From positions 1,045 through 65,044 of the forward strand of contig JAZQOG010000036.1 in assembly GCA_045627765.1 (NCBI GenBank): a DNA stretch of 64,000 nt. Direction: 5' to 3'. The DNA is from Paludibacteraceae bacterium. GTDB lineage: Bacteria; Bacteroidota; Bacteroidia; Bacteroidales; Paludibacteraceae. Made by a program: the position numbers and the translations under genes. Positions within the stretch are counted from its first letter, which is position 1. The number at the start of each line of letters is the position of its first letter. Shown in pieces: positions 1,404-58,859 of the stretch. The notes below the pieces were generated by a model. It had not been told where the DNA came from, searched no databases, and saw nothing but the letters and a program-made list of their open reading frames with translations.

Positions 1404-3442
1404 AGATTGTTGCGAAGGATCCCTACCTACAGCCGTTTGAGTCGGCTATTCAGGGACGATACGATTATGCTCTTCGCAAAGAGCAAGAACTAACCGGAGG
1501 TACCCCTCTCAAAGATTGGGCGAACGGGTATATGTATTTTGGCCTCCATCGCACCGCCACCGGTTGGGTGCTGCGCGAGTGGGCTCCTAACGCCACCGCT
1601 ATCTATGTCAAAGGCGACATGAACGGCTGGGCAAAAGATGAGTATTACCGCTTGCAACCCATCGGCAATGGCGTATGGGAAAAAGAGTGGCCGGCAGAAG
1701 CCCTACAACACGAACAACTCTACAAACTGTTGGTAGAGTGGAACGGCGGTTGGGGCGAACGTATCCCTTCCTACGCCACCCGCGTAGTGCAAGACGAACA
1801 AACGAAGATCTTCTCGGCGCAAGTATGGTGCTCGGAACAAGGAACAAAGACAAAGGACAAAGGACAAAAGAAACGTCCGACGATTAAGTGGCAGGCGGGG
1901 AAGGATAAACCGCTGTTTATCTACGAGTGCCATATCGGAATGTCGGGCGAGGAAGAGAGAGTGAACTCGTACGAGCAGTTCCGTCAAGAAGTGCTGCCTC
2001 GCGTAGAGAAATTAGGGTACAACTGCTTGCAGATTATGGCTATCCAAGAACATCCCTACTACGGTAGTTTTGGTTACCACGTAAGTAATTTCTTTGCTGC
2101 CAGTTCGCGTTTCGGTACCCCCGAGGAACTGAAAGCACTCATTGACGATGCCCATAGCCGGAACATTGCCGTCATCATGGATATCGTTCACTCGCATGCC
2201 GTGAAGAACGAACGCGAGGGATTAGGGAACTTTGATGGTACGCCCTACCAATATTTCCACGGAGGCTGGCGTCGTGAGCACCCGGCATGGGATAGTTTAT
2301 GTTTCGACTACGCCAAACCGCAAGTGATGCACTTCTTGCTGTCGAACTGTAAGTTCTGGATGGACGAGTACGGTTTCGACGGGTTCCGTTTCGATGGTGT
2401 GACCTCGATGATGTACCTCAGCCATGGTCTGGGAGAAGACTTCAATGGCTATGGCAGTTACTATACACCGAATGCCGATGGCGATGCGATCTGTTATCTA
2501 ACGTTGGCGAATAAACTGATTCACGAAGTTAAGAAAAACGCTATCACCATTGCCGAAGATATGTCCGGCATGCCGGGTCTGGCATGCCCCATCGCAGATG
2601 GAGGTATGGGCTTTGACTACCGCTTGGCGATGGGCATACCCGATTTCTGGATTAAGTATATCAAAGAGCAAAAAGACGAGGACTGGAAGGGCGGTCATAT
2701 CCTGTACGAGATGACTAACCGCCGTCAAGATGAGAAGACCATCTCCTACGCAGAGAGCCATGACCAAGCCTTAGTAGGCGATAAGACGATTATCTTCCGC
2801 CTCATCGATGCGGATATGTATTGGCATTTCGAGCATGGACATTCGACCTATATGGTGGACCGCGGTATCGCACTCCATAAGATGATCCGTCTGATTACGG
2901 CCTCGACCATCAATGGTGGGTACCTTAACTTCATGGGCAATGAGTTTGGTCATCCCGAATGGATCGACTTTCCGCGCCAAGGCAATGGCTGGAGTTATAA
3001 GTACGCCCGTCGTCAGTGGAGTTTAGTGGACCATCCGAACTATTACTTTGCGGACTTAGACCGCTTTGACACTGCGATGGTTAGCCTCTTAGAGCAAAAA
3101 CTCCAAATGGTGAAAGACGAGAATGGTATCCATCTGCCATGGGTTTATACGCTGTGGGATAATGAGGGCGACCAAGTGATCGCTTATCGTCGTGGAAACC
3201 TCATCTTCGTGTTTAACTGGAATGGCGTTAAGTCCTTCTCCGACTACGGAATCTTAGCCCCCGAAGGGAAATACAAGGTGGTGCTCAATACCGACGCCCA
3301 AGAGTTTGCCGGTTTTGGACTGTCAGACGATAGCGTCGAACACTTCACACAACCCGATAATTTATATAAGAAAGATAAAAAAGGCTGGTTAAAACTTTAC
3401 CTACCTGCTCGTTCAGCGGTAGTCTTAGAAATGATGAATTGA
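1397..3442 (+). CDS. glgB: 1,4-alpha-glucan branching enzyme (GH13, eukaryote-like type)
   Basis: 681 aa. GH13 conserved regions DIVHSHA, GFRFDGVTSM, AEDMSG and YAESHDQ are present. The start overlaps the upstream stop (ATGTTAA). Confidence 0.9.
   Translation: MLKIVAKDPYLQPFESAIQGRYDYALRKEQELTGGTPLKDWANGYMYFGLHRTATGWVLREWAPNATAIYVKGDMNGWAKDEYYRLQPIGNGVWEKEWPAEALQHEQLYKLLVEWNGGWGERIPSYATRVVQDEQTKIFSAQVWCSEQGTKTKDKGQKKRPTIKWQAGKDKPLFIYECHIGMSGEEERVNSYEQFRQEVLPRVEKLGYNCLQIMAIQEHPYYGSFGYHVSNFFAASSRFGTPEELKALIDDAHSRNIAVIMDIVHSHAVKNEREGLGNFDGTPYQYFHGGWRREHPAWDSLCFDYAKPQVMHFLLSNCKFWMDEYGFDGFRFDGVTSMMYLSHGLGEDFNGYGSYYTPNADGDAICYLTLANKLIHEVKKNAITIAEDMSGMPGLACPIADGGMGFDYRLAMGIPDFWIKYIKEQKDEDWKGGHILYEMTNRRQDEKTISYAESHDQALVGDKTIIFRLIDADMYWHFEHGHSTYMVDRGIALHKMIRLITASTINGGYLNFMGNEFGHPEWIDFPRQGNGWSYKYARRQWSLVDHPNYYFADLDRFDTAMVSLLEQKLQMVKDENGIHLPWVYTLWDNEGDQVIAYRRGNLIFVFNWNGVKSFSDYGILAPEGKYKVVLNTDAQEFAGFGLSDDSVEHFTQPDNLYKKDKKGWLKLYLPARSAVVLEMMN
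1834..1875 (+). repeat. 7-bp-period tract inside glgB (6 units, 42 nt, in frame)
   Basis: GGAACAA GGAACAA AGACAAA GGACAAA GGACAAA AGAAACG, encoding EQGTKTKDKGQKK between the N-terminal domain and the catalytic core. Confidence 0.8.
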
Positions 3443-3473
3443 ACCGCCACATCGTGGCTAAATGATGAATTGA
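3429..3473 (+). repeat. 14-bp direct repeat AAATGATGAATTGA x2 flanking a 17-nt hairpin. The first copy contains the glgB stop.
   Basis: Copies at 3429-3442 and 3460-3473 are identical, with spacer accgccacatcgtggct (GCCAC/GTGGC stem). The same 14-mer recurs on the minus strand at 57057-57070. Confidence 0.85.
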
Positions 3474-13683: not shown

Positions 13684-13715
13684 CTACTCCTCTACTCCTT
13701 TACTCCTCTACCCCC
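13684..13715 (-). repeat. 8-bp-period repeat CTACTCCT x4 (AGGAGTAG on the transcribed strand) in the pta-ackA 5' UTR
   Basis: ctactcct ctactcct ttactcct ctaccccc, lying between the -7 box (13729-13736) and ATG 13655. Confidence 0.85.
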
Positions 13716-16160: not shown

Positions 16161-16252
16161 AATTGTTTTGTTTTTAGTTGTTAATTGTTATTAGTTATTA
16201 GTCATTAGATTAATTTTAGTGCTTAGTAAAACCCTACTCCCAAATTCCGCTG

Positions 16253-17126: not shown

Positions 17127-18530
17127 ATGACCTCAATAAACGACGATATTGCCCAAGAAATTCCTCGCAGACGCGATATGCGTGAGCCTCTCACGTTCAC
17201 TATCGACCCTGCGGATGCTAAGGACTTTGATGATGCCCTCTCCTTTGAATCGTTAGGAGACGGACTCTACCAAGTCGGGGTGCATATTGCGGATGTTACG
17301 CACTATGTCCTGCCCGATACGGATATTGATGACGAGGCGTACCAACGAGGAACGAGCATATACGAAGTCAATCGGGTCACACCGATGTTGCCCGAAGAAC
17401 TTTGCAACGATTTATGTTCCTTGCGACCGAATGAGGATAAGCTGACCATGTCCGTCATCTTCACTATGACCGCTGATGCCAAGGTCGTTAAGCATAAGAT
17501 CTGCCGTACGGTCATCCGTTCCGATTTCCGCCTCACTTACGAGCAAGCTCAATCCATCCTTGACGGCAAAGCCGATCTTTCAGCCGAAGGCGGTCTTTCA
17601 GCGAAGCGGTCTTTCAGCGATAGCGGTCTTTCAGGCGAAGCCGGTCTTCAACAGGCTCTTCGCGAGTTGAACCTGATGGCTATTGCCCTTCGTCAGCGTC
17701 GTATAGCGGCAGGGGCTCTGTCGATAGATAAGGAGGAACCGCGTTTTGAATTGGACGCGAAGGGTCTGCCGACGGCTATTTATTTTGAGGCTCCTACACC
17801 GGCTCACCACCTGATTGAGGAGTTTATGTTACTGACCAATCGTACGATAGCGTCGCAAGTGGGGACGTTACCTTTCGTTTATCGTGTGCATGACTTGCCT
17901 GACACAGAGAAGCTGCGTCATGTCGAGCAGTTTAAGCGGAAGATGAAGAATAGGGTGCGTTCCGAAGTGATAGACTTACTCACGATTCGTGCGATGGCGA
18001 AGGCCGAATACTCGACTCATAATATCGGACATTTTGGCTTGCGTTTTTCCCATTATACGCATTTCACGTCGCCTATTCGTCGCTATCCGGATATGATGGT
18101 TCATCGGCTGGTGGATAAGTACATCCTTCGAGGCAAGCCGTCCAAAGACCCGAAAACGGAGAAAGAGATCTTAGAGCAGGCTTGTAAGCACTGTTCTGAG
18201 ATGGAACTTTTGGCGCAGGAGGCAGAAAGGGCTTCTGTCAAACTCTACCAAACGTTGTGGATGAGTAACCACATGGGAGAGGTGTTTGATGGTACGATCT
18301 CCAGTGTGACGGAGTTTGGGCTTTTTGTTGCGCTCAATGAGTCGCGTTGTGAAGGATTAGTGCATATTTACGATGTGATTCCGGGGGAGTATATGCTTTA
18401 TGAGGAGAAGAACTACCGTCTTGTAGGGGAGACGACAGGTAAGACCTTCACCATTGGTGACCCTATGCGGGTGCAGGTGGTGAAAGTGGATATTGATCGT
18501 GTACAGATAGATTTTATGCCAATAATATGA
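17127..18530 (+). CDS. rnr: RNase R/II-family exoribonuclease, RNB + S1 domains only (no N-terminal cold-shock/OB region)
   Basis: 467 aa. It starts at the RNB boundary ([26 protein letters not shown]), has [17 protein letters not shown], and has a C-terminal S1-like segment [20 protein letters not shown]. Confidence 0.8.
17571..17652 (+). repeat. 15-17-bp-period tandem repeat inside rnr, in frame
   Basis: gccgatctttcagccgaag gcggtctttcagcgaa gcggtctttcagcgata gcggtctttcaggcgaa gccggtcttcaac, encoding [27 protein letters not shown]. It contains TCTTTCAGGCGAAGCCGGTC (17627-17646). Confidence 0.85.
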
Positions 18531-19902: not shown

Positions 19903-19948
19903 TCTTTCAGGCGTTAGCCGATCCCTACTCCTCTACTCCTCTACTCCT
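19903..19948 (-). repeat. core motif TCTTTCAGGCGTTAGCCGATCC followed by CTACTCCT x3
   Basis: Same layout as 21440-21513 downstream of the 1745-aa gene. Confidence 0.85.
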
Positions 19949-21439: not shown

Positions 21440-21513
21440 TCTTTCAGGCGGCAGCCGGTCCGACAGCTGCAAGCGATCCGACAGCGTAAGCGGTCCGACA
21501 GCACAGCGGTCTG
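21440..21513 (-). repeat. core motif TCTTTCAGGCGGCAGCCGGTCC followed by about 16-bp-period CCGACAGC repeats up to the stop codon
   Basis: ggtccgacagctgcaagc gatccgacagcgtaagc ggtccgacagcacagc ggtctg, then cta (stop). Confidence 0.85.
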
Positions 21514-27407: not shown

Positions 27408-27408
27408 A

Positions 27409-28331: not shown

Positions 28332-28500
28332 GTTAGTTGTTATTACTTTTTTACCATTTATCTCTTTTTCTGTCGCTACGCTATTAAAATCCATCGTAAG
28401 GGATGCGATAAAATCATTTTAGCACTTTTCTTTATTTCGCTGCGCTCAGAAATCTTACTTAAAATCTATTCAAAATCTTTACTAAAAATCTATTTTATTG

Positions 28501-28545
28501 CCCTTTCCCTAGATACGGTTTTCCCGTTAAGCGGGAACACCATGC
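28501..28545. repeat. hairpin module M2, copy B
   Basis: ccctttccctagatacggtt TTCCCG-ttaag-CGGGAA caccatgc. Confidence 0.85.
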
Positions 28546-28589
28546 CTACGTACATCCTACGAAGTGGTCGCGGTGGGTTCCTTGCTTGC

Positions 28590-28855: not shown

Positions 28856-29275
28856 CTACTTCTTATTAAAAACCAAATCTAATCCTTGAGATCTATAAAA
28901 TTCAAAACGACTATCACTTGAAATAAGAGGTATCTTCTCTGTTAATGCTTGAGCAATAATGATGTGATCGGATGGATCTTTATGCCCCTGAACTTCATTC
29001 AAAGTCATTTTAGCATAAGTTTGTATATGCTCATATTTTATAGGAAGAAGAACTATGCTACTCTCTTTAATGCTTTGAACCATTTCGAACTCCGAGTTCC
29101 AAACATTTGCCCACAACCCTTTATTTCGATAGGCCAACACCAATTCTTTAAGAGACTCTATACTCATATAAAGTACATTGTCGTAATCTCTTAAGATAGC
29201 ATCTACATCCGAACTTAATTTGTCCGGTTCTACCATCATGTAAATGAAGATATTGGTGTCTATTAAGTATCGCAT
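28856..29275 (-). CDS. PIN-domain (VapC-like) ribonuclease toxin
   Basis: 139 aa. MRYLIDTNIFIY (Asp6), SIESLKEL, DPSDHIIIAQAL and LISSDSRF acidic positions are typical of PIN. Confidence 0.8.
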   Translation of the reverse strand: MRYLIDTNIFIYMMVEPDKLSSDVDAILRDYDNVLYMSIESLKELVLAYRNKGLWANVWNSEFEMVQSIKESSIVLLPIKYEHIQTYAKMTLNEVQGHKDPSDHIIIAQALTEKIPLISSDSRFEFYRSQGLDLVFNKK

Positions 29276-29276
29276 A

Positions 29277-29384
29277 CTACACTAGCAGCATTGGGTCATT
29301 AACAAACACGTGCCCTCTAAGTTTCATCAAGTATTCATAAACCGGATTCAACTTCTTCTCTTCTTGCTTCTCTTTTTGTGCCAT
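29277..29384 (-). CDS. 35-codon ORF coupled to the PIN gene (possible minimal antitoxin)
   Basis: Not in the track (under 60 aa). MAQKEKQEEKKLNPVYEYLMKLRGHVFVNDPMLLV*. The stop TAG at 29277-29279 lies 1 nt before the PIN ATG, and the promoter lies about 40 nt upstream. Confidence 0.35.
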   Translation of the reverse strand: MAQKEKQEEKKLNPVYEYLMKLRGHVFVNDPMLLV

Positions 29385-29421
29385 AATCGTACGTTTTTGA
29401 TTGTTTTGCAGTTTTGCGCTG

Positions 29422-29429
29422 CAAAGTTA
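29422..29429 (-). promoter_or_regulatory. -7 box TAACTTTG for the small ORF-PIN operon
   Basis: Plus strand reads caaagtta, followed by cagaaaaattatgacatacgcaaatat. Confidence 0.65.
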
Positions 29430-29564
29430 CAGAAAAATTATGACATACGCAAATATTTCGCAATAATTCGCGAAAATATTTACACTTTTAACGGTAACAT
29501 CACTATTTCAAAGATCACAGACCCTACCAAGCCTCCCCTCACGGGGGAGGATGTGGGTTACCCC

Positions 29565-29596
29565 CTACTCCTCTACTCCTCTACTCCTCTACTCCC
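29565..29596 (-). repeat. CTACTCCT x4 (AGGAGTAG on the sense strand), containing the stop codon of the 103-aa gene
   Basis: ctactcct ctactcct ctactcct ctactccc. The ORF ends ...GVEE* inside the repeat. Confidence 0.9.
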
Positions 29597-29892
29597 TTTT
29601 TCCCACGCTTCGCAAGGCGCACACCGGCATACGCAGCAGCAAAGGCAAGCAATGCCCAAGGAGCACCAACGGGAGAGTCTGGATCTTGATCACCAATCTC
29701 GCCTTGCGTTATTGGATTCCTATTCGGTCCACCGGGGGCGTGATTAGGACCACTATTGCCACTAGGGTTATCAAAGGTGGTCGTGTACAACTGATTGGGT
29801 TCAGTGGCACCCGGTTCGGTAATGCCGCTTTGCGCCATCATCACGAGGGGCAGCGAGGCAACTAAAAGAAAGGTTAAAACATGTTTTTTCAT
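29581..29892 (-). CDS. small secreted Pro/Gly/Asn-rich protein with a C-terminal hydrophobic anchor and basic tail
   Basis: Trimmed to MKKHVLTFLLVASLPLVMMAQSG (103 aa). The C-terminus reads DPDSPVGAPWALLAFAAAYAGVRLAKRGKKGVEE. Confidence 0.55.
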   Translation of the reverse strand: MKKHVLTFLLVASLPLVMMAQSGITEPGATEPNQLYTTTFDNPSGNSGPNHAPGGPNRNPITQGEIGDQDPDSPVGAPWALLAFAAAYAGVRLAKRGKKGVEE

Positions 29893-30067: not shown

Positions 30068-30166
30068 ACCACGAGCATCTAATGCTGCCGGTTTTTGCGG
30101 GTGGAAATTTACCAGATTTCGAATAGCAAAAACAAGCGCTTAAACGCCATTAACCATAATCGGCTG

Positions 30167-30174
30167 CAAATTTA
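30167..30174 (-). promoter_or_regulatory. -7 box TAAATTTG
   Basis: Plus strand reads caaattta, followed by caaaaaagtttttatatgtgcaaat. Confidence 0.6.
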
Positions 30175-30244
30175 CAAAAAAGTTTTTATATGTGCAAATT
30201 TTTTTTGCAAATTTTATCCGAAAATGGCATTTTTTGATATAAAC

Positions 30245-30286
30245 GTAGGGGTAGGGGGCGATGTACGATGCACGATGCACGATGCT
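30245..30286 (-). repeat. GTAGGG x2 plus 7-bp-period CGATGCA x4, directly after the proS stop
   Basis: gtaggggtaggggg cgatgta cgatgca cgatgca cgatgct a, then tta (stop, 30288-30290). Confidence 0.85.
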
Positions 30287-42143: not shown

Positions 42144-42170
42144 CAGGGACTTTCTCTCTCGAAAGCGGGT

Positions 42171-42178
42171 GCAAAGGT
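42171..42178 (-). promoter_or_regulatory. -7 box TACCTTTG for tRNA-Asp
   Basis: Plus strand reads caaaggta, followed by cgacatttttttgatatgaccaaat. Confidence 0.65.
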
Positions 42179-42315
42179 ACGACATTTTTTTGATATGACC
42201 AAATTTTTTTGATGTTTTTTTTCAAAAAAATGCATTTTTCTCGATTTTTAGGGGTGGAATAGGCAAAAAATGAGGATTTTTGTGGATAGTATTTGTATAT
42301 TTCCTAATTTTTTTG

Positions 42316-42346: not shown

Positions 42347-43372
42347 ATGTCACGCATTCAAGACGAAAATAAAGTGTATGAGTTTTTTCGCCCGTTTGTA
42401 GATTGGATGTTCCGACATTCTTATCGGCATTTCCAATATGTAGGGCTGGAAAACATACCCCAAGATGGTGCTATTATTTTTGCGCCTAATCATACCAACG
42501 CCCTTTGTGACGCAATGTGTATCTTAGGCATTGACGGTCGGCGCAAAGTGTTTGTAGCTCGTGCCGATATCTTCAAAAATCCTAAACAAGCTAAGCTTCT
42601 CAATTTCTTCAAGATCCTTCCTATCAATCGCCTGCGCGATGGACTGGAGGCCGTTCGACATGACGATGAGACAATGGATAAGGCGGTGGAGGTGCTGAAC
42701 GATGGCGTTCCTTTCTGCATCCTACCCGAAGGTACACATCGCCCCAAACACTCGTTGCTGCCCCTAACAAAAGGAATCTTCCGTATCGCACTGAGAGCCA
42801 ACGATAAGTTCGGCCACGAAAAACCGGTTTATATCGTGCCGGTAGGATTGGAATATGGGGATTATTACCACCTATGGGACTCGCTGACGGTGAATATCGG
42901 TAAACCCATCAATGTGACGCAGTTCGTGAAGGATGTGCAAGCCAATGCGACAGTGGAACTGACGCAACCGCAGATCATCAATATGCTACGAGACGAACTG
43001 ACCGATCGCATGCGTGAACAGATCTTGTGGGTGCCCGACGATGAACATTACGAGGAGAATCTTAAGAAGTTACAAGAGAATCCACCCGCACCCTTTGATA
43101 AGTTCAAGAAGCATAGGATTCCGCGTTGGGCTCTGCTGATCTTACTTATATTGATGACACCCCTCTTTGTGGTGTGTGCTGCCGTGACATTACCTATCTG
43201 GCTGGTTTGGTTTATTATTCGTGGGAAGTTTAAGGATCCCGCCTTCCATAATTCTGTACAATATTTATGGCAACTGATTTGTATTCCGCTGTTGTTCTTT
43301 ATTCAAGCTCCCTTCTGGATCTTCTTCCAAGAGTACTTGTATCAAGTGCGACAGTATCAGAAGGGCGGATAG
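42347..43372 (+). CDS. PlsC-family (lysophospholipid) acyltransferase with C-terminal TM helices
   Basis: 341 aa. HX4D motif NHTNALCD and PEGTHR motif. Confidence 0.75.
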   Translation: MSRIQDENKVYEFFRPFVDWMFRHSYRHFQYVGLENIPQDGAIIFAPNHTNALCDAMCILGIDGRRKVFVARADIFKNPKQAKLLNFFKILPINRLRDGLEAVRHDDETMDKAVEVLNDGVPFCILPEGTHRPKHSLLPLTKGIFRIALRANDKFGHEKPVYIVPVGLEYGDYYHLWDSLTVNIGKPINVTQFVKDVQANATVELTQPQIINMLRDELTDRMREQILWVPDDEHYEENLKKLQENPPAPFDKFKKHRIPRWALLILLILMTPLFVVCAAVTLPIWLVWFIIRGKFKDPAFHNSVQYLWQLICIPLLFFIQAPFWIFFQEYLYQVRQYQKGG

Positions 43373-43395
43373 GCGGATAGGCGGAAAGGCGAATA
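43364..43395 (+). repeat. 8-bp-period GGCGGATA x4, which supplies the stop codon of the acyltransferase gene
   Basis: ggcggata ggcggata ggcggaaa ggcgaata. The TAG at 43370-43372 spans units 1 and 2. Confidence 0.9.
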
Positions 43396-43418: not shown

Positions 43419-44600
43419 ATGATTAGAGTTTTTGTGATTTTGGGGCTGTATATTGTGGCTCCGGTGGTGATTATTGAGGCTTTTAAGCATTGGACGTGGG
43501 CGCAGAAGATTGGTACCGTTGTGTTGGCGTATGCCGTAGGAATCATTTTAGCCTTGTCGGGGGCTTGTTCGTTTGAAGTAGGAACGGCAGCTGCGGCAAC
43601 GTTTGGCAAAGTGCAGTCGTTGATTATGAGTGTGGCGGTACCGTTGGCTATTCCGTTGATGCTGTTTAACTGCGACTTCAAACTATGGACGAAAGCGCTG
43701 CCAAAGACCATTTGGGCGCTTGTAGGTGGTGTCGTAGCGGTGGTGATCTCGGTCGTTACCGGTTATCTGATTTTCCGTAACCAAGGTATTCCCGAGATAG
43801 AAAAGGTGTCGGCAATGATGACGGGTATCTATACGGGCGGAACGATGAACTTCAACGCCTTGGGGGCTTCGTTAGGGGTCGATAAGTCCGTGATGGCTAT
43901 CGTGCTGGCGTTTGAGATGGTGCTCACTACACCTTATATATTTTTTATAATAGGAGGCGGCTATAAGATCTTCCGTAAGATTTTGCCGTATGAGGATGTG
44001 ACGCGTCGTGGTCGCAAGGACAGTGCGGATATCCCAACGGGTGATGTAGAGAACTACCGTGGTATGTTCAAGAAAGGGAATGTAGGGGGGATGTTCCTCG
44101 GTTTGGGACTGAGTGTGCTGTTCTTGGCTATTGGAGCGGGACTGAGTTTGCTTATTACGGGTAATTTGAACGAGTTGGTGGTGATATTGACCATCACGAC
44201 GTTGGCGATTATTGCCTCGTTCTTCAAGAAAGTGAGAGAACTGCCTAAGACGTTTGAGTTGGGTATGTTCTTTATTCTTATTTTTAGTGTGATTGTGGCA
44301 TCGCTCTTTGATATCCATAGCCTCAATGGCGGTGCGATGATGATTGGCGCGTTAGTGGCTTGGATTATGGTTATGAGTGCGCTGATTCACTTGGCGTTCT
44401 GCCGAGCAATGAAAGTCAGTGGCGATTTATTCACGGTGGGGCAGGTGGCGCTGCTTTGTTCGCCTCCGTTCGTTCCTCCGGTAGTAGGCGCAATGAAAAA
44501 TAAAAAAGTGTTACTCAGCGGTATAGTGATAGGATTGGTCGGGTACGCGATAGGTACGTACCTCGGTGTGGCGATAGCATGGCTGCTGCCGTTGTTATAG
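43419..44600 (+). CDS. polytopic membrane protein, DUF819-like
   Basis: 393 aa with about 11 hydrophobic helices. The family name is recognition only. Confidence 0.55.
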   Translation: MIRVFVILGLYIVAPVVIIEAFKHWTWAQKIGTVVLAYAVGIILALSGACSFEVGTAAAATFGKVQSLIMSVAVPLAIPLMLFNCDFKLWTKALPKTIWALVGGVVAVVISVVTGYLIFRNQGIPEIEKVSAMMTGIYTGGTMNFNALGASLGVDKSVMAIVLAFEMVLTTPYIFFIIGGGYKIFRKILPYEDVTRRGRKDSADIPTGDVENYRGMFKKGNVGGMFLGLGLSVLFLAIGAGLSLLITGNLNELVVILTITTLAIIASFFKKVRELPKTFELGMFFILIFSVIVASLFDIHSLNGGAMMIGALVAWIMVMSALIHLAFCRAMKVSGDLFTVGQVALLCSPPFVPPVVGAMKNKKVLLSGIVIGLVGYAIGTYLGVAIAWLLPLL

Positions 44601-44601: not shown

Positions 44602-44633
44602 GTAGAGGAGTAGAGGGGTAGAGGAGTAGGGTA
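44602..44633 (+). repeat. GTAGAGGA x4 (same family as CTACTCCT), starting 1 nt after the stop
   Basis: gtagagga gtagaggg gtagagga gtagggta. Confidence 0.9.
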
Positions 44634-49025: not shown

Positions 49026-49030
49026 AAACT

Positions 49031-49084
49031 TATTTACTATTTGACAATTTACGATTTACCATTTACATTTTACCATTTATTTAC
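49031..49084 (-). repeat. GTAAAT-based 6-8-bp-period repeats filling the frdC-frdA gap. The frdC stop is part of the first unit.
   Basis: The sense strand reads gcGTAAATaaatgGTAAAAtGTAAATgGTAAATcGTAAATtgtcaaataGTAAATaagtttATG. Confidence 0.85.
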
Positions 49085-49779: not shown

Positions 49780-49851
49780 AATAAAATGGATTTTTAATGA
49801 TGAATTTATAAATGATGTATTTAATAATTGTTTTTTTCGTAATTAGGCGTG

Positions 49852-49859
49852 CAAAGATA
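49852..49859 (-). promoter_or_regulatory. -7 box TATCTTTG for frdCAB
   Basis: Plus strand reads caaagata. The -33 (caaa 49880-49883) lies 20 nt upstream. Confidence 0.7.
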
Positions 49860-49891
49860 CGAAAAAATTTGCATATATGCAAAAAAAGTTG

Positions 49892-49899
49892 TACTTTTG
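49892..49899 (+). promoter_or_regulatory. -7 box TACTTTTG for the glucosaminidase gene
   Basis: The -33 TTTG at 49868-49871 lies 20 nt upstream. ATG 49919. Confidence 0.7.
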
Positions 49900-50929: not shown

Positions 50930-50994
50930 TAGTTTAGAGTGGAGAGTTTAGAGTTTAGAGTTTAGAGTAGCCGTCTAGTTGGATAGTTGAAAGA
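50930..50994 (+). repeat. non-coding copy of the mini-element: GTTTAGAG repeats + AGCCGTCTAGTT core + GTTGAAAG
   Basis: tagtttagagtggagagtttagagtttagagtttagagtagccgtctagttggatagttgaaagaga. It fills the whole intergenic gap. Confidence 0.85.
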
Positions 50995-50996: not shown

Positions 50997-51281
50997 ATGA
51001 AGGGAACACAAAGTATAGGGCAGGCGATAATGGATTTTCTGAGAGAAAATCAATTGGAACAACCTCTGTTAGAGCGGAGGGTGGTGACTTTATGGGCTGA
51101 GTTGATGGGACCTACAGTGGCCGGTTTGACGCGTTCGGTGGATGTGCAGAATGGCGTGCTAAAAGTCAAGTTAAGTTCTTCGGCATTGCGTCAGCAGTTG
51201 TTTGAATGTCGGTTTGAGTTAGTGAAAAAGTTTAATGAGGCAGTGGGTGCCACTGTGATAAGAGATGTTCGTTTATCCTGA
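50997..51281 (+). CDS. DUF721 (DciA-like) small protein
   Basis: 94 aa. ...VVTLWAELMGPTVAGLTRSVDVQNGVLKVKLSSSALRQQL is a typical DUF721 pattern. Confidence 0.6.
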   Translation: MKGTQSIGQAIMDFLRENQLEQPLLERRVVTLWAELMGPTVAGLTRSVDVQNGVLKVKLSSSALRQQLFECRFELVKKFNEAVGATVIRDVRLS

Positions 51282-53610
51282 AAACATAGAATCTAAAATA
51301 GACTTTACGGCTATCCGTACTCAATTGATGGGCGCGTGTTCGTCCGTATTGGGACGCGAACAAGTGGAGCAGATTACGTTCTTGACAGACAAAGAGCGTA
51401 TCCTCTTTTTGTTGCGTGAGACAGAGGAACTTGGACATATCATGAGTGACGGTTCGCTCGATTTTCCTCGAGGGGATATCGCTGATGTGAGAGAGGCCGT
51501 TGGGCGAATACATGTGGTAGGATTATACCTCAATGAACAAGAACTGTTTGACTTACGTAAGACACTTGACTATGCAGGACGTTTGGACGAGTTCTTCCAA
51601 CATCTGGACGTTAATAGGTTCCCGATTTGGAGCAAATATAGTTTAGAGTTTAAAGTTGAAAGTTTAAAGAAGCCGTCTAGTTCGGAAGTTGAAAGTTTAA
51701 AAGATATTCTGCGTGTGATAGATAGGGTGCTGGATCGTTATGGTCAGTTGTCGGATTCGGCATCGCCGGAGTTGGCTCGTATCCGTAAAGACTTACGGCA
51801 AGCGCAAGGCAGTGCGAACCGAGCCTTGATGGGTATTCTGCGTCAAGCGCAAGCAGAAGGAATCGTCGATAAAGATGTAGCACCCACGATGCGTGAAGGG
51901 CGTTTGGTTATTCCCGTTCCGCCTGCTTATAAACGCAAGTTAGGAGGAATCGTACACGATGAGTCCGCTACGGGCAAGACGGTATATGTAGAGCCACAAC
52001 AGGTGGTAGAAGCAAATAACCGCATTCGCGAACTCGAAGGCGAAGAGGGACGCGAACGGATACGTATCTTACAAGCCGTGAGCGGAATACTGCGAGACCA
52101 GATGCCGTCTATTCACGAAGCGGAAAAACTATTGGCACACGTGGATTTGGTACGAGCCAAAGTGATTGTGGCGCAACAACAAAAAGCGATTATGCCTCAA
52201 GTGAGCGAGGAATCGATTATCGACTTACGCGAAGCGCGGAATCCGATACTCGAAAATAGTTTAAAGTTTAAAGTGGAAAGTTTAAAGAAGCCGTCTAGTT
52301 CTGAAGTGGAAAGTTTAAAAGTTATTCCGTTAGATATTAAATTAAAGAAAGAGAATCGTGTTCTCGTTATCTCGGGTCCGAATGCGGGAGGTAAATCGGT
52401 ATGTCTGAAGACGGTGGGGTTGTTGCAGTATATGTTGCAATGCGGTCTGCTTGTGCCTTTGCGAGAAGATAGTACAATGAGTGTGTTTGAGCACTTGATG
52501 ATAGATATCGGCGACGAGCAGTCGATGGAGGACGACCTATCGACCTATTCCTCTCATTTACGAAACATGAAAGCGTTTGTGCGTTATGCGAATGAACAAA
52601 CCTTACTGCTTATTGATGAGTTTGGAACCGGTACAGAACCGCTGTTAGGCGGTGCTATTGCGGAGGCGGTACTGTCGCAGTTAGTGGCGCAAGGCGCCTT
52701 TGGGGTGATCACGACCCACTACACGAACCTCAAACATTTTGCGGAAGTGACGGAGGGTGTGCAGAATGGGGCGATGCTCTATGACCGCGGACAACTCAAA
52801 CCGCTTTTCCAACTCTCGCAAGGTCAAGCGGGGAGTAGTTTTGCCATTGAGATAGCGCGTCAGATAGGGTTGCCGGAAACAATCATTGCTCAAGCCAGCG
52901 AACTGGTGGGCAGCGAACACATCGACTACGATAAATCCTTACAAGACATCGCGCGAGACAAGCGTTATTGGGAGAATAAACGACAAAACATCCGCCAACG
53001 GGAGAAACATCTGGAAGAGAAAATCGCTTTCTACGAAGGGGAGATAGCCGGTCTTAAGGCCAAGAAGAAAGAGGTGATGGCGAAAGCGCAAGAGGAGGCT
53101 GCGGAGTTACTCAAACAGAGTAATGCCACGATTGAACGAACGATTAGAGAGATAAAAGAAGCCAAAGCGGATAAGGAACGCACTCGCGCAGCAAGGGCTA
53201 AAGTGGAAAGTTTAAAGTTTAAAGTGGAAAAATCCGGAAATACCGGAAAATCCGGAGATTCAGGAAAGTCCGGTCAGAAGGTGCTGCATGATTTTAAGGA
53301 CTTGAAGCCGGTGGCGAAGTCGATGGCAGCGCAGAATCCGACAGTGAGCAATACCATTCGTCAGCATAAGTTGCGTTTTGAGCGCACATTGGATTTGCGA
53401 GGCTTGCGGGCTGATGAGGCATTGGAGCAGACGATCGCGTATATAGATGACGCTATCATGGTCGGAGCGGGCGAGGTGACGATCTTACACGGTACGGGTA
53501 CGGGCGCATTGAAACAGTTAGTGCGCGAATACTTGAAAAAACGCAAGTTAGACTTCCGTGATGGAGATATAGACCATGGTGGTGCGGGCGTGACGATGGT
53601 CGATTGTTAA
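51265..53610 (+). CDS. mutS2: endonuclease MutS2 (MutS domain V ATPase + C-terminal Smr)
   Basis: 781 aa. MFVYPENIESKIDF, Walker A GPNAGGKS, DEFGTGTEP, and Smr LDLRGLRADEAL...HGTGTGALK. Confidence 0.9.
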   Translation: MFVYPENIESKIDFTAIRTQLMGACSSVLGREQVEQITFLTDKERILFLLRETEELGHIMSDGSLDFPRGDIADVREAVGRIHVVGLYLNEQELFDLRKTLDYAGRLDEFFQHLDVNRFPIWSKYSLEFKVESLKKPSSSEVESLKDILRVIDRVLDRYGQLSDSASPELARIRKDLRQAQGSANRALMGILRQAQAEGIVDKDVAPTMREGRLVIPVPPAYKRKLGGIVHDESATGKTVYVEPQQVVEANNRIRELEGEEGRERIRILQAVSGILRDQMPSIHEAEKLLAHVDLVRAKVIVAQQQKAIMPQVSEESIIDLREARNPILENSLKFKVESLKKPSSSEVESLKVIPLDIKLKKENRVLVISGPNAGGKSVCLKTVGLLQYMLQCGLLVPLREDSTMSVFEHLMIDIGDEQSMEDDLSTYSSHLRNMKAFVRYANEQTLLLIDEFGTGTEPLLGGAIAEAVLSQLVAQGAFGVITTHYTNLKHFAEVTEGVQNGAMLYDRGQLKPLFQLSQGQAGSSFAIEIARQIGLPETIIAQASELVGSEHIDYDKSLQDIARDKRYWENKRQNIRQREKHLEEKIAFYEGEIAGLKAKKKEVMAKAQEEAAELLKQSNATIERTIREIKEAKADKERTRAARAKVESLKFKVEKSGNTGKSGDSGKSGQKVLHDFKDLKPVAKSMAAQNPTVSNTIRQHKLRFERTLDLRGLRADEALEQTIAYIDDAIMVGAGEVTILHGTGTGALKQLVREYLKKRKLDFRDGDIDHGGAGVTMVDC
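51638..51703 (+). repeat. 66-bp mini-element, in-frame copy 1 in mutS2
   Basis: atagtttagagtttaaagttgaaagtttaaagaagccgtctagttcggaagttgaaagtttaaaag, encoding SLEFKVESLKKPSSSEVESLKD. Confidence 0.9.
52256..52321 (+). repeat. 66-bp mini-element, in-frame copy 2 in mutS2 (62/66 identical to copy 1)
   Basis: atagtttaaagtttaaagtggaaagtttaaagaagccgtctagttctgaagtggaaagtttaaaag, encoding SLKFKVESLKKPSSSEVESLKV. Confidence 0.9.
53199..53277 (+). repeat. partial mini-element fused to a 9-bp-period TCCGGAAAA tract, in frame in mutS2
   Basis: aaagtggaaagtttaaagtttaaagtggaaaaa, then tccggaaat accggaaaa tccggagat tcaggaaag tccggtcag, encoding KVESLKFKVEKSGNTGKSGDSGKSGQ. Confidence 0.9.
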
Positions 53611-55849: not shown

Positions 55850-57057
55850 TGTTTATGGCTGCCAATAAGGTTAAGCAGTTCGGGATATAGTATGAGGTGA
55901 TAAAAATCGGTAAAGACATGGTTATGCCAGAGCAATGTCAGTTCCCCGTTGTATTGTTTGACTTTGTCTATCAAGGCTTGGCAATAGTAAAAGGCCTCTT
56001 GCTCATTGAGGTGCATATATGGCTCGTTTTGTAGGGTGCAGTCCATGATCGTTAAGGGGTGCAAAACAAGATTCGTGAGTTCAAACGTGACGGGATTGAT
56101 CCACCGCACAGGACGGGTCGTTTGTAAACGGAAACCGGCTTGATCGGCAAACCCCATCGTATAATCATCCGTTATACCGGCGGTGACTAACGCTTGCATC
56201 TTCTCGATGGAGCACCGCAAGAAATGACTGCGGTGCTTTTTTTCTAGATTGTCTAGATTTCCTAGGTTGTCTAGTTTTCCTAGATTTCCTAGTTCATAGT
56301 AACTGCTATGCAATCCCAAAAGGGCCCCATGCTCGGTGAGGTACTGAGCGAGCTGACGAAAGTCTTTGCCGCGCAGATTGTATTGCGGATAATCATAGCC
56401 TTTGCCGGAAGTGTTCTTGACAAAGTAGATGATCTTTGTTTGGGGCAGTTGTTTGACCACTTGTAGGTCTTGGTTCATCATCCATTCAAACGTGTAGGCG
56501 GGGTCGTTGTGAATCTCTTTCCACGCGGCAATCACATCTTTCCAATGTCCTCTTGAAAGCCCTCCAATAGCACCTCGCAGGTGGCGATAGCGGGTGAGAA
56601 TATCTATGTCGTGTGTGAGATTGATACCCGAAAATCCGGAAGGGAGTAATGGTAAATCCAATGCCTTCATGAGTACGCGACTATACTCGTCAATAAGCGG
56701 AATCATTAGGCGGTTGTTCTCTCCGAGAATAGAGTGTTGGGCTAAGAATCGTCCATGTTCATCCCGTTGCGGATTAATCAGTTCTTCTGCGCGAGAGATA
56801 AAGAAGGCGGTGTTGTAGATGATATCCGTTGTAAACACAATGGGGCCGTCCTTCGGACTGAAAGATTGCTGCGCTGTAAGACCCCCTTCAGCTGAAAGAT
56901 CAGGTAAAACCCAATCTTTGCCGAGGTGCCCATTGGCTTGAATGCAAACCCGATATCGGTAGCACTTCGTAGGATCTACGTTGTATGCAACTTGTTTGGC
57001 TGCCTCTTTATTTCCATAAAGAAGAAACTCAATAATATATTCTACAATCTCATCCAT
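55846..57057 (-). CDS. hypothetical protein of the polysaccharide cluster (possible deacetylase-like)
   Basis: The track start 57060 is TTG. ATG at 57057 gives 403 aa. INLTHDIDIL motif. Contains the in-frame LGNLGKLDNLGNLDNLEK repeat. Confidence 0.45.
   Translation of the reverse strand: MDEIVEYIIEFLLYGNKEAAKQVAYNVDPTKCYRYRVCIQANGHLGKDWVLPDLSAEGGLTAQQSFSPKDGPIVFTTDIIYNTAFFISRAEELINPQRDEHGRFLAQHSILGENNRLMIPLIDEYSRVLMKALDLPLLPSGFSGINLTHDIDILTRYRHLRGAIGGLSRGHWKDVIAAWKEIHNDPAYTFEWMMNQDLQVVKQLPQTKIIYFVKNTSGKGYDYPQYNLRGKDFRQLAQYLTEHGALLGLHSSYYELGNLGKLDNLGNLDNLEKKHRSHFLRCSIEKMQALVTAGITDDYTMGFADQAGFRLQTTRPVRWINPVTFELTNLVLHPLTIMDCTLQNEPYMHLNEQEAFYYCQALIDKVKQYNGELTLLWHNHVFTDFYHLILYPELLNLIGSHKQ
56244..56297 (-). 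repeat. 9-bp-period CTAGATTKY x6 inside the 403-aa ORF, in frame
   Basis: ctagattgt ctagatttc ctaggttgt ctagttttc ctagatttc ctagttcat on the plus strand. The sense strand encodes ELGNLGKLDNLGNLDNLE. Confidence 0.9.
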
Positions 57058-57070
57058 CAATTCATCATTT
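57057..57070 (-). repeat. third copy of the 14-mer AAATGATGAATTGA, between the ABC-F stop and the next ATG
   Basis: Plus strand reads tcaattcatcattt. The surrounding sense sequence is TGAATGATGGACTGATGAAATGATGAATTGATGG. Confidence 0.85.
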
Positions 57071-57080
57071 CATCAGTCCA

Positions 57081-58859
57081 TCATTCACTAAGGATCTCCC
57101 ACTCGTACATTTTCTGTTCGAGGGCGTGTTTGATATGTTCGTATTTGGCGAAGTTCTCTTGTGTTTGGTTAGCGGGGTCATTGAGGCTTAGCTCCATCGT
57201 TTTTTGTTGTTCTTCCAACTGAGCAATCTCTGCCTCTATTTCGGCTATCTGTTTCTCTTTTTTTCGTTTGGCTGCGGCTTGCGCTTTTTGAGCTTCGTAG
57301 TCGAGTTTAGATCCGGATTCTCCGGATATTCCGGATTTTCCGGTTTTCTCGGGGGACTTCTCCAACTCTTGTAGAGAACTCATCTTTTTTCTACGTAGGA
57401 AGTCGTAGATTCCCCCGATGTGTTCGCGCACTTTGCCTCCACCGAACTCATACACTTTTTGTACAAGTCCATCGAGGAAATCGCGGTCGTGGCTGACACA
57501 AATCACTGTCCCATCGAAGTCTTGTAGTGCTTGTTTGAGTACATCTTTTGAGGGCATATCGAGGTGGTTGGTAGGCTCGTCAAGGATGAGTAGGTTACAG
57601 GGTTCGAGCAGTAGTCGTATCATCGCTAAGCGGCTGCGTTCGCCTCCACTAAGCACTTTGACTTTCTTGTCGGAAGCCTCGCCACCGAACATGAAAGCAC
57701 CTAAGATATCGCGAATCTTAGTCCGTATATCGCCTACGGCGACGCGGTCGATGGTATCAAAAACAGTTTGCGTTTCGTCTAAGAGTGAGGCTTGGTTTTG
57801 AGCAAAATAGCCTATCTTGACATTATGTCCAATCTTGAGTGTTCCCTCATAATCGAGTTGACTCATGATACAGCGCACGAGGGTGGTTTTACCTTCTCCG
57901 TTTTTTCCGACAAACGCCACTTTCTCTCCACGTCGAATGGTGAGGTTAACATCTTGAATGACGGTGTGGTCGCCAAAGGCTTTGGTGAGGTCTTGAATGA
58001 TGACGGGAAAATCCCCACTGCGTGGAGCAGGCGGAAAACGTAGATTGAGTCGAGAGGTGTCTTCAAGATCCACTTCGAGACGTTCGAGTTTATCGAGTTG
58101 CTTGATACGCGATTGTACTTGTACGGCTTTGGTGGCTTTATAGCGGAAACGTTCGATAAAATCTTCCGTCTCTTGAATCATTTTTTGTTGATTGAGGTAA
58201 GCGCGTACCTGTTGGTCGTGTCGTTCTTGGCGAAGGGCAACGAACTTGGAATAGGGTACATTATAATCGTAGATACGACCAAGAGTGATCTCAATGGTTC
58301 GGCGGGTGATGTTATCGATGAAAGCGCGGTCGTGGCTGACTACGATGACGGTCATGTTGCTGGCATTGATAAAGTCTTCGAGCCATTGGATAGACTCAAT
58401 GTCAAGGTGGTTGGTAGGCTCATCTAAGAGGAGCAGGTCGGGGTGCTGAAGTAGGATCTTGGCTAATTCAATACGCATCCGCCAACCTCCTGAGAACTCT
58501 GTGCAAGGGCGATGGAAGTCTTTGCGCTCAAACCCAAGACCGATGATTGTGCGATCCATCTCCGCAATGAAACGGGCTTGGTCTTCTCCTTGGAAGATCG
58601 TCATCACTTCTTCTTGAAGGGTATTACCATCCTTATGGAGCATCACCTGTGGTAGGTAACCGATGGTGAGGTCGTTATCTCGTGCGATAGTGCCCGATGT
58701 AGGGGTATATTCGCCCGCAATGAGGCGGAGAAGGGTTGTTTTGCCTGCTCCGTTCTTTCCGACCAAGGCGATACGGTCTTTCTTGTTGACGAGGAAAGAG
58801 ATATCGTTGAGGATGGGTCGTGCCGAAAACTCAATGCTAAGATGTTCGATAGATAACAT
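57081..58859 (-). CDS. ABC-F family ATPase (two ABC domains, no TM domain)
   Basis: 592 aa. Walker A GKNGAGKTTLL and GKNGEGKTTLV, signatures FSGGWRMR and LSGGERSR, and a C-terminal coiled-coil. Confidence 0.9.
   Translation of the reverse strand: MLSIEHLSIEFSARPILNDISFLVNKKDRIALVGKNGAGKTTLLRLIAGEYTPTSGTIARDNDLTIGYLPQVMLHKDGNTLQEEVMTIFQGEDQARFIAEMDRTIIGLGFERKDFHRPCTEFSGGWRMRIELAKILLQHPDLLLLDEPTNHLDIESIQWLEDFINASNMTVIVVSHDRAFIDNITRRTIEITLGRIYDYNVPYSKFVALRQERHDQQVRAYLNQQKMIQETEDFIERFRYKATKAVQVQSRIKQLDKLERLEVDLEDTSRLNLRFPPAPRSGDFPVIIQDLTKAFGDHTVIQDVNLTIRRGEKVAFVGKNGEGKTTLVRCIMSQLDYEGTLKIGHNVKIGYFAQNQASLLDETQTVFDTIDRVAVGDIRTKIRDILGAFMFGGEASDKKVKVLSGGERSRLAMIRLLLEPCNLLILDEPTNHLDMPSKDVLKQALQDFDGTVICVSHDRDFLDGLVQKVYEFGGGKVREHIGGIYDFLRRKKMSSLQELEKSPEKTGKSGISGESGSKLDYEAQKAQAAAKRKKEKQIAEIEAEIAQLEEQQKTMELSLNDPANQTQENFAKYEHIKHALEQKMYEWEILSE
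57312..57347 (-). repeat. 9-bp-period TCCGGATTY x4 inside the ABC-F gene, in frame
   Basis: The sense strand aaaaccggaaaatccggaatatccggagaatccgga encodes KTGKSGISGESG. It shares ACCGGAAAATCCGGA with mutS2 53242-53256. Confidence 0.9.

Follow-up and report, generated by a model that had tools for sequence, protein, structure and literature searches.

Heptamer-dominated tandem arrays at gene ends of an uncultured Paludibacteraceae bacterium: probable slippage products retained in compact operons

The DNA analysed here, called the window below, is a 64,000-nucleotide chromosome segment (contig JAZQOG010000036.1 of assembly GCA_045627765.1) of an uncultured member of the Paludibacteraceae (Bacteroidales). 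Its GC content is about 46%, and the top matches of its proteins are found in Paludibacteraceae metagenome-assembled genomes (MAGs) from animal guts. The subject of this work is the short tandem repeats of the window, which lie at gene 3' ends, in the spacers between genes and in frame within genes (Table 1). An earlier note had claimed that such repeats abut or supply the stop codons of at least ten genes. Each of these sites was read directly on the sense strand, and the claim stands for eight of the ten, the exceptions being glgB and a presumed tail remnant.

The array covers the stop codon or begins 0-3 nt past it in the acyltransferase, DUF819, glucosaminidase, frdC, proS, 103-aa and ABC-F genes. 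The TAG of the PlsC-like acyltransferase gene had been placed inside a fourfold repeat, and this is what direct reading gives; the GGCGGATA x4 array occupies the first half of the 46-nt spacer between this gene and the DUF819 gene. The repeat reported from 44602 onwards behind DUF819 is present, with copies that read as 3.5. Its unit family is that of AGGAGTAG, and the array is 97% complementary to 29563-29592. The descriptions of the glucosaminidase TAA followed by TAGTTTAGAG repeats, of the frdC TAA as part of the first GTAAAT unit, of the proS TAA followed by TAG and then by CATCGTG units (x3.9), and of the 103-aa gene ending in GVEE* within AGGAGTAG repeats were all confirmed, as was that of the ABC-F TGA with TGATGRA repeats, the units of which are imperfect. 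The frdC-frdA spacer is 55 nt long, consists of array throughout and has a minimum free energy (MFE) of 0 as RNA, i.e., it is unstructured. Repeats do follow the TAG of the 1745-aa gene, at a distance of 11 nt, or of 0 nt if a partial unit is counted. On its 3' side this array is followed by GCCTGAAAGAT and then by a 14-bp terminator hairpin (z = -4.15 for 21400-21516).

The glgB repeat is not a short-period array: a 14-nt direct repeat is split there by 17 nt (period 31, ~1.45 copies). The tail remnant said to end in GVEE* is an array situated beyond the true stop of the AAA_14 gene, directly preceding a 17-bp terminator hairpin (19898-19860). We rejected its interpretation as the tail of a decayed gene, since one reading frame of AGGAGTAG spells GVEE* automatically. 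Of the window arrays away from stops, one (13684-13711) follows a TAnnTTTG promoter motif in a divergent spacer and adjoins no stop, one is on the start side (16187-16208) and six are in frame within genes. AGGAG-containing units were also considered as Shine-Dalgarno (SD) sites and rejected, the last AGGAG being 25-30 nt from the nearest start.

Table 1. Tandem arrays and related repeats of the window
Repeat	Position	Strand	Context
AAATGATGAATTGA, two copies	3429..3473	+	copies split by 17-nt hairpin-forming spacer; glgB TGA in first copy
AGGAGTAG-type x3.5	13684..13711	-	divergent spacer, 28 nt upstream of start of gene 12654-13655
TAATAAC x3	16187..16208	-	26 nt upstream of start codon of gene 15564-16160
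TCTTTCAGCGAAGCGG x4.2, period 17-18	17576..17648	+	in frame in RNB domain of RNase R-like gene; ~15 added residues
AGGAGTAG x3	19925..19948	-	3' untranslated region of AAA_14 gene, 57 nt past stop
GCTGTCGGACCGCTTAC, 17-nt period x2.7	21456..21502	-	11 nt past TAG of 1745-aa gene
AGGAGTAG x3.9	29565..29595	-	encodes GVEE and TAG of 103-aa signal-peptide gene 29581-29892
CATCGTG x3.9	30259..30285	-	2 nt past proS TAA 30288-30290
GGCGGATA x4	43364..43395	+	encloses TAG 43370-43372 of acyltransferase gene 42347-43372
GTAGAGGA x3.5	44602..44629	+	1 nt (a T) past DUF819 TAG 44598-44600
GTAAATG-type, period 7, ~6.7 copies	49026..49080	-	fills entire frdC-frdA spacer
Composite element: TAGTTTAGAG heptamers x5.4, core AGCCGTCTAGTT, AGTTGAAAG	50930..50992	+	directly 3' of glucosaminidase TAA
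el1, 66 nt	51637..51702	+	in frame in MutS2, translated SLEFKVESLKKPSSSEVESLK
el2, 66 nt	52255..52320	+	in frame in MutS2 just ahead of ATPase core; 92% identical to el1
AAAGTGG/AAAGTTT heptamers and AAATCCGGA x5 (KSG repeats)	53195..53273	+	in frame, MutS2 linker before Smr domain
TCTAGGAAA x6, period 9/18	56239..56294	-	in frame in DUF7033 gene
Imperfect TGATGRA / AAATGATG units	57055..57085	-	span ABC-F TGA and start of next gene, 20-nt junction
AAATCCGGA-type x4.2 (KSG repeats)	57312..57348	-	in frame near ABC-F C-terminus; family of 53234-53273

Arrays were called with Tandem Repeats Finder (TRF; score of at least 40, period of 5-20 nt, at least 2.8 copies), and 50 Markov shuffles served as the null for the number of arrays in the window. 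Out of dozens of short-period arrays listed by TRF, 18 passed this filter, compared with a mean of 0.04 and a maximum of 1 in the shuffles; for intergenic DNA alone the values are 7 and 0. A family-wide set of 1.56 Mb was then formed by the window and 83 related loci (84 Paludibacteraceae loci), in which 226 arrays were placed. The closest relatives recovered are L004 (MutS2 95% identical in amino acids, ~90% in nucleotides), L055 (89%) and L005/L001 (80%, one MAG). A period of 7 nt is by far the commonest (101 arrays), with 18 arrays of 8 nt. The period of 11 nt ranks second (50 of the 226); its units are diverse and are not A-tracts. Across the 84 loci, density is 0.79 arrays per kb in intergenic DNA and ~0.07 per kb in coding DNA. 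Despite this approximately tenfold genic depletion, about 50 period-7 arrays lie wholly inside called genes (the gene calls being crude) and in frame. The clade of the window has 1.67 arrays per 10 kb, compared with 0.38 in a Paludibacter-like outgroup. The excess over chance, the dominance of heptamers and the enrichment in non-coding DNA are thus direct observations: this Paludibacteraceae clade is rich in long simple sequence repeats (LSSRs), and the observation is real and statistically solid. No paper linking Paludibacteraceae with tandem repeats was found in the searchable literature.

The distance of arrays to stops was compared with uniform placement inside each array's own spacer, adjacency being defined as a distance within 3 nt. 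A strict test was complemented by a lenient re-run with a larger array set. In spacers shorter than 100 nt, 25 of 34 arrays are stop-adjacent in the strict test (16.0 expected, P = 0.0005) and 69 of 100 in the lenient one (49.7 expected, P < 1e-5). Adjacency on the start side is depleted in the lenient test (36 observed, 47.3 expected). Overlaps of 14-28 nt with a stop are seen in 15 more arrays. Spacers of at least 100 nt have no stop enrichment, either in the strict test (4/52 vs 3.9 expected) or in the lenient one (10/129 vs 13.7 within 3 nt; 31 vs 28.3 within 30 nt). Random placement, the null proposed by the earlier note, is therefore contradicted over 1.56 Mb by the short spacers and not by the long ones. 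The idea that repeats are specifically drawn to stop codons did not survive: the three spacer types of the 84 loci have similar densities, with 0.72 (divergent), 0.87 (tandem) and 0.60 (convergent) arrays per kb.

A metagenome scan with the DUF819 protein provided 80 further orthologous loci as a replicate set, in which both junctions flanking DUF819 were read. None of these relatives exceeds 81% identity, and the copy-number comparisons are accordingly between relatives, not strains. The commonest state of a junction is an ATGA overlap or a spacer shorter than 12 nt; an array is present in 22 of the 38 spacers of at least 30 nt. The stop is abutted or covered by 32 of the 39 junction arrays: 21 begin inside the upstream open reading frame (ORF) and take in the stop and up to 7 codons, 11 begin within 3 nt of it, and the remaining 7 lie further away. 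Periods of 7 nt (28/39) and 8 nt (9/39) prevail. The repeat unit includes a stop triplet on the sense strand in 34 of the 39 arrays, while 21.5 +/- 3.1 would be expected from the composition of array-free spacers; an antisense stop triplet is present in 16. Spacers made of (TTNNGAA)n measure 16, 23, 30 and 37 nt in different relatives, i.e., they differ by 7-nt steps, and two other pairs of relatives have spacers of 36 vs 43 nt and 37 vs 44 nt at one junction. Such whole-unit steps between relatives are direct evidence of slippage in place.

Orthologous gene ends differ in how far the arrays have entered them. The acyltransferase-DUF819 spacer is occupied by unrelated arrays in three genomes: by GGCGGATA in the window, by ATTRAGG x7 in L001 and, in L003, by a sequence that is degenerate and free of C. 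The acyltransferase ends in QYQKGG* in the window and in QYRKLKVL or KFRRAKE in orthologues; as this tail is variable past the conserved ...FQEYLYQVR, the KGG* of the window is array-encoded. The frdC-frdA spacer contains three unrelated arrays across four sister genomes: L055 has the same array as the window, L004 has the AGTTGAAAG family in antisense and L005 the GCTGTAGGACCGC family. Each of them encodes the final one or two codons of frdC together with its stop, and the ends ...LMLA* (window) and ...LMF* (L004) have stops that come from different arrays. At the ABC-F junction, L004 and L005 have AGGATTAAGG arrays in spacers of 56-61 nt.

Turnover behind fixed ends is observed just as directly. 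The DUF819 end AWLLPLL* is identical in the window, where GTAGAGGA x3.5 follows it, and in L001, where TGTGGAT x4 does; the L003 genes overlap here. Four genomes (window, L004, L055, L005) share the glucosaminidase end KPKK*, and the same array begins at the stop in all of them. Its element is duplicated in L004, the TAG of the first unit is the stop itself in two genomes, and the arrays of the window and L005 differ by one unit. Identical ends combined with differing arrays or copy numbers mean that at these two genes the arrays arrived after the ORF end was set. The earlier suggestion that the repeat has redefined the ORF end consequently applies to some tails (acyltransferase, frdC, 21 of the 39 metagenome arrays) and not to those of DUF819 and glucosaminidase, which are unchanged among sister genomes. 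Of what the earlier note had named as speaking against its claim (random intergenic placement, or identical ORF ends in close relatives that have no repeats nearby), only a part agrees with these results. Judging from these alignments, arrays usually postdate ORF ends, sometimes rewrite a tolerant tail, and turn over quickly.

Arrays inside genes are in frame and partly belong to dispersed families; those with periods not divisible by 3 are located at tolerant sites of the proteins. A 66-nt composite of AGTTTAGAG heptamers, the core AGCCGTCTAGTT and AGTTGAAAG heptamers stands after the glucosaminidase stop and twice in MutS2 (el1 and el2). The el1 site is occupied by GGCGACA x5 in L005 and contains a further 33 nt, nested, in L004. 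The el2 site holds 33 nt in L004 and nothing in L055 and L005, and Bacillus subtilis MutS2 has a 19-residue gap there; comparison of the filled and empty el2 sites showed no target-site duplication. The MutS2 linker before the Smr domain contains a TRF array in 25 of 78 orthologues, the units being all different and the periods being 7, 8, 9, 11, 12, 14, 16, 18, 21 and 23 nt. In the RNB domain of the RNase R-like gene stands the TCTTTCAGCGAAGCGG family, which is also found in the same sense in the DUF7033 gene (56858-56901). The TCTAGGAAA array of the latter gene is an insertion of 10-11 residues relative to other orthologues, and the same site in L004 and L005 is taken by the AGTTTAGAG-AGCCGTCTAGTT element in antisense. 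A hairpin beside the TCTAGGAAA array was considered as part of an inserted element and rejected, as the orthologue alignment shows that it encodes the conserved HRSHFLRC. Overall, the settings of the AGTTTAGAG-AGCCGTCTAGTT element comprise intergenic DNA, MutS2, the glucosaminidase gene and, in antisense, the DUF7033 gene. A nested 33-nt module, GCCCCAAGGGGCRCGATCGGCAA, is common to L004 MutS2 and the L005 glucosaminidase gene. At orthologous hot spots, sister genomes have unrelated families, which replace one another also in frame within MutS2, RNase R and other conserved proteins. Recurring families and replacement at hot spots are not explained by in-place slippage, and the composite families suggest templated copying between arrays. 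The composite elements have no terminal inverted repeats, target-site duplications or self-complementarity, and no transposase link was found for them. The resemblance of the core GCCGTCT to a Neisseria uptake sequence was judged coincidental, such a 7-mer being expected ~8 times per window.

Two of these genes have further peculiarities. The MutS2 proteins of the window clade (window 51265-53610; L004-L083) are without the KOW-like segment VGxxVRLKGQTATGxIxEIQGKxAxVAFGxLKSTVKL that Paludibacter-like MutS2 carries before Smr, and have a variable low-complexity linker, often with tandem arrays. The RNase R-like ORF (17127-18530) borders on a divergent promoter region and begins with the RNB domain, N-terminal cold-shock/OB domains being absent; the gene may have been truncated or split, or may encode a short enzyme of RNase II type. 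A 33-nt module of the form GCCCCAAGGGGC(G/A)CGATCGGCAA(A)GCCGT is nested in frame beside the AGCCGTCTAGTT core at L004 8800-8840 (MutS2) and L005 9180-9215 (glucosaminidase), and includes a small GCCCC/GGGGC hairpin.

The earlier note had also raised the strand of the repeats, and a sense-strand bias is present in operon-type spacers. Arrays in short tandem spacers have a sense-strand composition of G.225, C.062, A.437 and T.277, compared with G.163, C.172, A.372 and T.292 in array-free short spacers, i.e., C makes up 6% vs a background of 17%. The repeats at the two metagenome junctions are biased in the same way (C.057, A.467); over both sets, A makes up 44-47% of the arrays and 37-38% of array-free short spacers. 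Of 30 short-spacer arrays, 22 have more G than C. The earlier note had ascribed stops in all three frames to stop-bearing units with a period not divisible by 3; among 32 short-spacer arrays, such three-frame stops are present on the sense strand in 22 and on the antisense strand in 11. No strand bias exists inside genes (47 vs 44 arrays), and in the 84 loci the composition bias is not seen for arrays in long spacers or inside genes. In long spacers, arrays that lie no more than 50 nt ahead of a start are poor in G, not in C. A general rule that all arrays are C-free on the sense strand was rejected on account of these start-side arrays, the 47/44 genic split and the antisense frd array of L004. 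As RNA, the junction arrays are unstructured (MFE ~0 to -5 kcal/mol for spacers of 50-70 nt), and neither the arrays nor the 66-nt element fold better than shuffles (MFE 0 to -10 kcal/mol, z -1.5 to +1.1). Only three tRNAs reach the gathering score of Rfam covariance models in the window.

We consider it probable, at roughly 0.6, that the arrays are LSSRs that arose by slippage, were seeded in junction sequence and were filtered by selection. In E. coli, MutS-type mismatch repair leaves loops of at least 5 nt uncorrected. Units of 5-11 nt, mostly of 7 and 8, would arise at a high rate via slipped-strand mispairing, and loops of unit size would escape mismatch repair. Slippage would occur everywhere, with most products purged by selection; survivors would be expected where non-triplet indels are harmless, in intergenic spacers and untranslated regions, and, given an in-frame net length, in protein loops, linkers and tails. 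Within compact operons, neighbouring genes would at first overlap (ATGA) or be a few bases apart; the sole seed at such a junction would be the stop codon with the A-rich leader, and ~20 nt before the next start would have to remain a usable leader. Arrays would hence grow from or against the stop, with a stop triplet per unit, A-rich and C-poor, and fill most of the spacer. Since neither 7 nor 8 is divisible by 3, three units suffice to bring a stop into frame, and at most ~7 codons are rewritten. The arrays, as we read them, are a lineage-wide slippage habit and not a dedicated stop-codon device, their focus on stops being due mainly to the places in compact operons at which slippage products can arise and persist.

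Several points weigh against this reading. Genes in the 84 loci were called crudely, by a codon-usage score. Long-spacer arrays of the window and its five closest relatives are nearer to stops than expected (6 vs 2.4, P = 0.02), as are those of the window alone (5/6 within 60 nt of a stop, P = 0.003), both tests being post hoc with small n; these arrays sit between a stop and a terminator or the next promoter. The element past the glucosaminidase gene is approximately as conserved in four genomes as the flanking coding DNA. The C-depletion of junction arrays to 6% exceeds dilution by the stop triplet, and given this depletion, RNA-level selection may also act on them. Unit families recur at non-orthologous sites and across genomes: AGGAGTAG arrays are found at four loci of the window, the 66-nt AGTTTAGAG-AGCCGTCTAGTT element 13 times in five related genomes and GCTGAAAGACCG 12 times vs 0.8 expected (15-fold).

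The composition of junction arrays could also be explained if they were selected cis-acting mRNA elements, i.e., unstructured leaders that aid SD-independent initiation and/or deny Rho its C-rich loading, with the three-frame stops as a backstop to read-through. Initiation in Bacteroidota depends on A-rich unstructured leaders, and Rho favours C-rich, G-poor RNA. The A-rich, C-poor sense composition that repeats at two metagenome junctions, the confinement of the G>C bias to short spacers, the higher share of three-frame stops on the sense strand and the low folding energies of 50-70-nt spacers all agree with this proposal, and the same junction holds some array in many lineages though its sequence changes. 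However, unit sequences are not conserved among sister genomes, the L004 frdC-frdA array is G-free and contains C on the frd sense strand, many orthologous junctions have an ATGA overlap or less than 12 nt and no array, and the start-proximal arrays of long spacers are poor in G instead of C. Moreover, stop-plus-leader seeding with a tolerance filter predicts the same composition, and the bias fits both it and selection for unstructured Rho-resistant spacers. We regard such selected elements as rather unlikely.

The dispersed families invite another explanation, in which the arrays or the composite families are tiny non-autonomous elements akin to cyanobacterial small dispersed repeats, MIRUs (mycobacterial interspersed repetitive units) or Rickettsia palindromic elements, copied between tolerant sites, also in frame into genes, by a templated process such as template switching or ectopic gene conversion via microhomology, with stop-adjacent sites as preferred or tolerated landing places. 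Apart from the recurrence of AGGAGTAG, of GCTGAAAGACCG and of the AGCCGTCTAGTT-core element in varied contexts, this is favoured by el2 being full in the window, half in L004 and absent in L055/L005, by the GCCCCAAGGGGCRCGATCGGCAA module in two different genes of L004 and L005, and by the hot spots with unrelated families in sister genomes. The hallmarks of a mobile element listed above (terminal inverted repeats, target-site duplications, self-complementarity, a transposase link) were not found, though, and the window copies of the 66-nt element all lie within 2.4 kb, which is local clustering. Most junction units are lineage-private and change by whole-unit steps, as slippage predicts. The native sequence of the empty el2 site, TTGAAAAAAG, resembles the unit, which points to microhomology-driven copying or local expansion rather than transposition. 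As a general account of the arrays, we find dispersed elements quite unlikely. It is similarly doubtful that, beyond slippage, tiny elements are copied and pasted without any protein of their own in Bacteroidales and junction arrays have been co-opted as intercistronic spacers for SD-independent initiation or the avoidance of Rho; the candidates for copy-paste that share non-orthologous sites are the AGTTTAGAG-AGCCGTCTAGTT element, the GCTGAAAGACCGC 16-18-mers and AGGAGTAG. In several pathogens, phase variation is brought about by simple sequence repeats (PMC4679880), and copy number changes by whole units between relatives here, yet contingency loci that switch the flanking genes are highly improbable, as the arrays lie past stops, in operon spacers or in in-frame linkers and none between promoter boxes or in early coding sequence, unit changes at these places leave the frame of the upstream gene unshifted, and the flanking genes are housekeeping ones (proS, frdCAB, mutS2, acyltransferase).

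The arrays can be compared with several known systems. LSSRs, of which the 5-11-nt class has heptamers as the commonest units, were described by Mrazek, Guo & Shah (2007), who proposed polymerase slippage, as summarised in PMC4679880. To the extent of that summary, the arrays of the window clade resemble LSSRs in having head-to-tail 5-11-nt units beyond chance, heptamer dominance, a mostly non-coding location, a sporadic lineage-specific abundance and whole-unit copy changes between related genomes. They differ from the LSSRs so summarised in the second favoured period of 11 nt, in the composite dispersed families and in the many arrays of non-triplet period kept in frame in conserved proteins.

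The GGGAATC heptamers of Xanthomonas and GGGGAYT heptamers of Nostoc are mostly intergenic, lie 0-50 bp past the stop on the coding strand, in some cases overlap the stop, are much nearer to the upstream ORF and vary in length among related species (Rehm et al., 2015; PMC4692102). The junction arrays described here share the stop-proximal position (32/39 in the metagenome loci; 69/100 vs 49.7 in the lenient test), along with the intergenic location and the variation in length among relatives. The Xanthomonas and Nostoc arrays have one G-rich quadruplex unit, whereas dozens of unrelated, mostly A/T/G-rich units are found here; GGGAATC/GGGGAYT doublets number none in the window and one in all loci, and the window has no G3+N1-7 x4 motif. 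TAACTGA repeats are known from Beggiatoaceae, cyanobacteria and a few Bacteroidetes including Paludibacter propionicigenes (MacGregor, 2015; PMC4679880). In the forward direction they place stops in three frames, so their overlap with ORF ends is limited to ~18 nt or less, and a post-transcriptional role was proposed (PMC4679880). They are similar to the present arrays as intergenic heptamer arrays with three-frame stops, but represent a single unit located mostly directly upstream of starts, while the stop side is favoured here. No TAACTGA arrays (TAACTGATAACTGA) exist in the window or in 163 loci, and the other heptamer families STRR1-3 are absent too.

MIRUs (Supply et al., 1997, as cited in PMC12548453) are 46-101 bp long and have their own small ORF coupled at -4 nt. 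According to that citation, they also stand at operon stop/start boundaries with little harm to flanking expression; the units found here are of 7-18 nt (mostly 7-8) and have no ORF. Only the TGATG junctions of ABC-F and glgB (57055-57085 and 3429-3473) are reminiscent of MIRUs as cited there, by their stop/start overlap motif. The hallmarks of miniature inverted-repeat transposable elements and repetitive extragenic palindromic sequences, namely terminal inverted repeats, a stable palindromic hairpin and target-site duplication, are not present in the elements studied here. Rickettsia palindromic elements and cyanobacterial small dispersed repeats are short repeats in frame in conserved genes, nested in or beside heptamer arrays. 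The in-frame repeats absent from orthologues (MutS2 el2, ~15 residues of the RNB domain, 10-15 residues of the DUF7033 protein) are comparable to Rickettsia palindromic elements, except that the latter are ~100-150 bp long and the elements here are 30-80 nt long and not self-complementary. Stop-proximal heptamer arrays as such have thus been described before, in Xanthomonas and Nostoc, and it is the dispersed composite families that remain beyond a slippage account.

Fast birth and death of repeats shapes the 3' ends of genes, the operon spacers and the protein linkers of this uncultured clade from animal guts. For annotation, this means that C-terminal residues and some internal segments of 10-25 residues are repeat-encoded and lineage-private in otherwise conserved proteins. 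For evolution, the junctions offer a natural series of spacer growth, from an ATGA overlap to 30-140 nt in 7-nt steps, in which non-triplet unit periods automatically limit the rewriting of ORFs. Two loose ends are left by slippage: one is the swapping of composite families at hot spots, also within essential genes, the other the marked scarcity of C on the sense strand of junction arrays. If this composition bias reflects selection, the clade would be a good one for studying intercistronic translation and Rho polarity in SD-independent Bacteroidota.

Some other short sequences recur at gene boundaries of the window. The 11-mer AATGATGAATT has exactly four copies, at 3430, 3461 and 49796 on the plus strand and at 57059 on the minus strand, all at gene boundaries: two at the glgB end, one in the spacer upstream of frdC and one at the ABC-F stop junction. 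Allowing one mismatch raises the number of matches to 8 (2.6 expected), and at two sites the 11-mer reads as a mini-ORF, MMN*, with TGA overlapping ATG. The sequence GCCTGAAAGAT(A/T)A lies between array and terminator hairpin 3' of two genes (19899-19915 and 21437-21455, minus strand) and is related to the GCTGAAAGACCG array family, in-frame members of which are found in RNase R, the DUF7033 gene and L005 MutS2.

Promoters of Bacteroidota type (TTTG...TAnnTTTG) are found in every long spacer. A sigma-70 promoter scan gave 42 sites vs 40.6 expected, the sigma-70 model being uninformative for Bacteroidota. Promoter regions are unusually uniform over ~38 nt, following TTTGCATATATC...(A/T-rich)...CGTACCTTTGCA, well beyond the -33 TTTG and -7 TAnnTTTG boxes. 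Such promoters are located at 571-660, 13727-13764, 16251-16288, 21314-21351, 29420-29457, 30165-30202, 42170-42222 and 49850-49899, and two of them face each other in the last of these regions.

The 26000-28000 region, immediately upstream of the 1745-aa gene (for which only a weak Flg_new_2 match was obtained), is a low-GC island (0.34 vs ~0.46) that holds several small ORFs and may have been acquired horizontally. At 28221-28336 lies a tandem duplication of 58 nt (84% identical) with the motif CCTACGTACATCCACCGAAGTG. The same motif is found at 28545-28566 and, as reverse complement, at 56956-56989 in the 5' part of the DUF7033 gene. Just downstream of the array of the 103-aa gene, a PIN-domain gene (28856-29275, minus strand), a probable toxin, is preceded by a short ORF that starts with MAQKEKQEEKKLNPVYEYLMKLRGH (29310-29400), and the pair looks like a VapBC-type toxin-antitoxin module.

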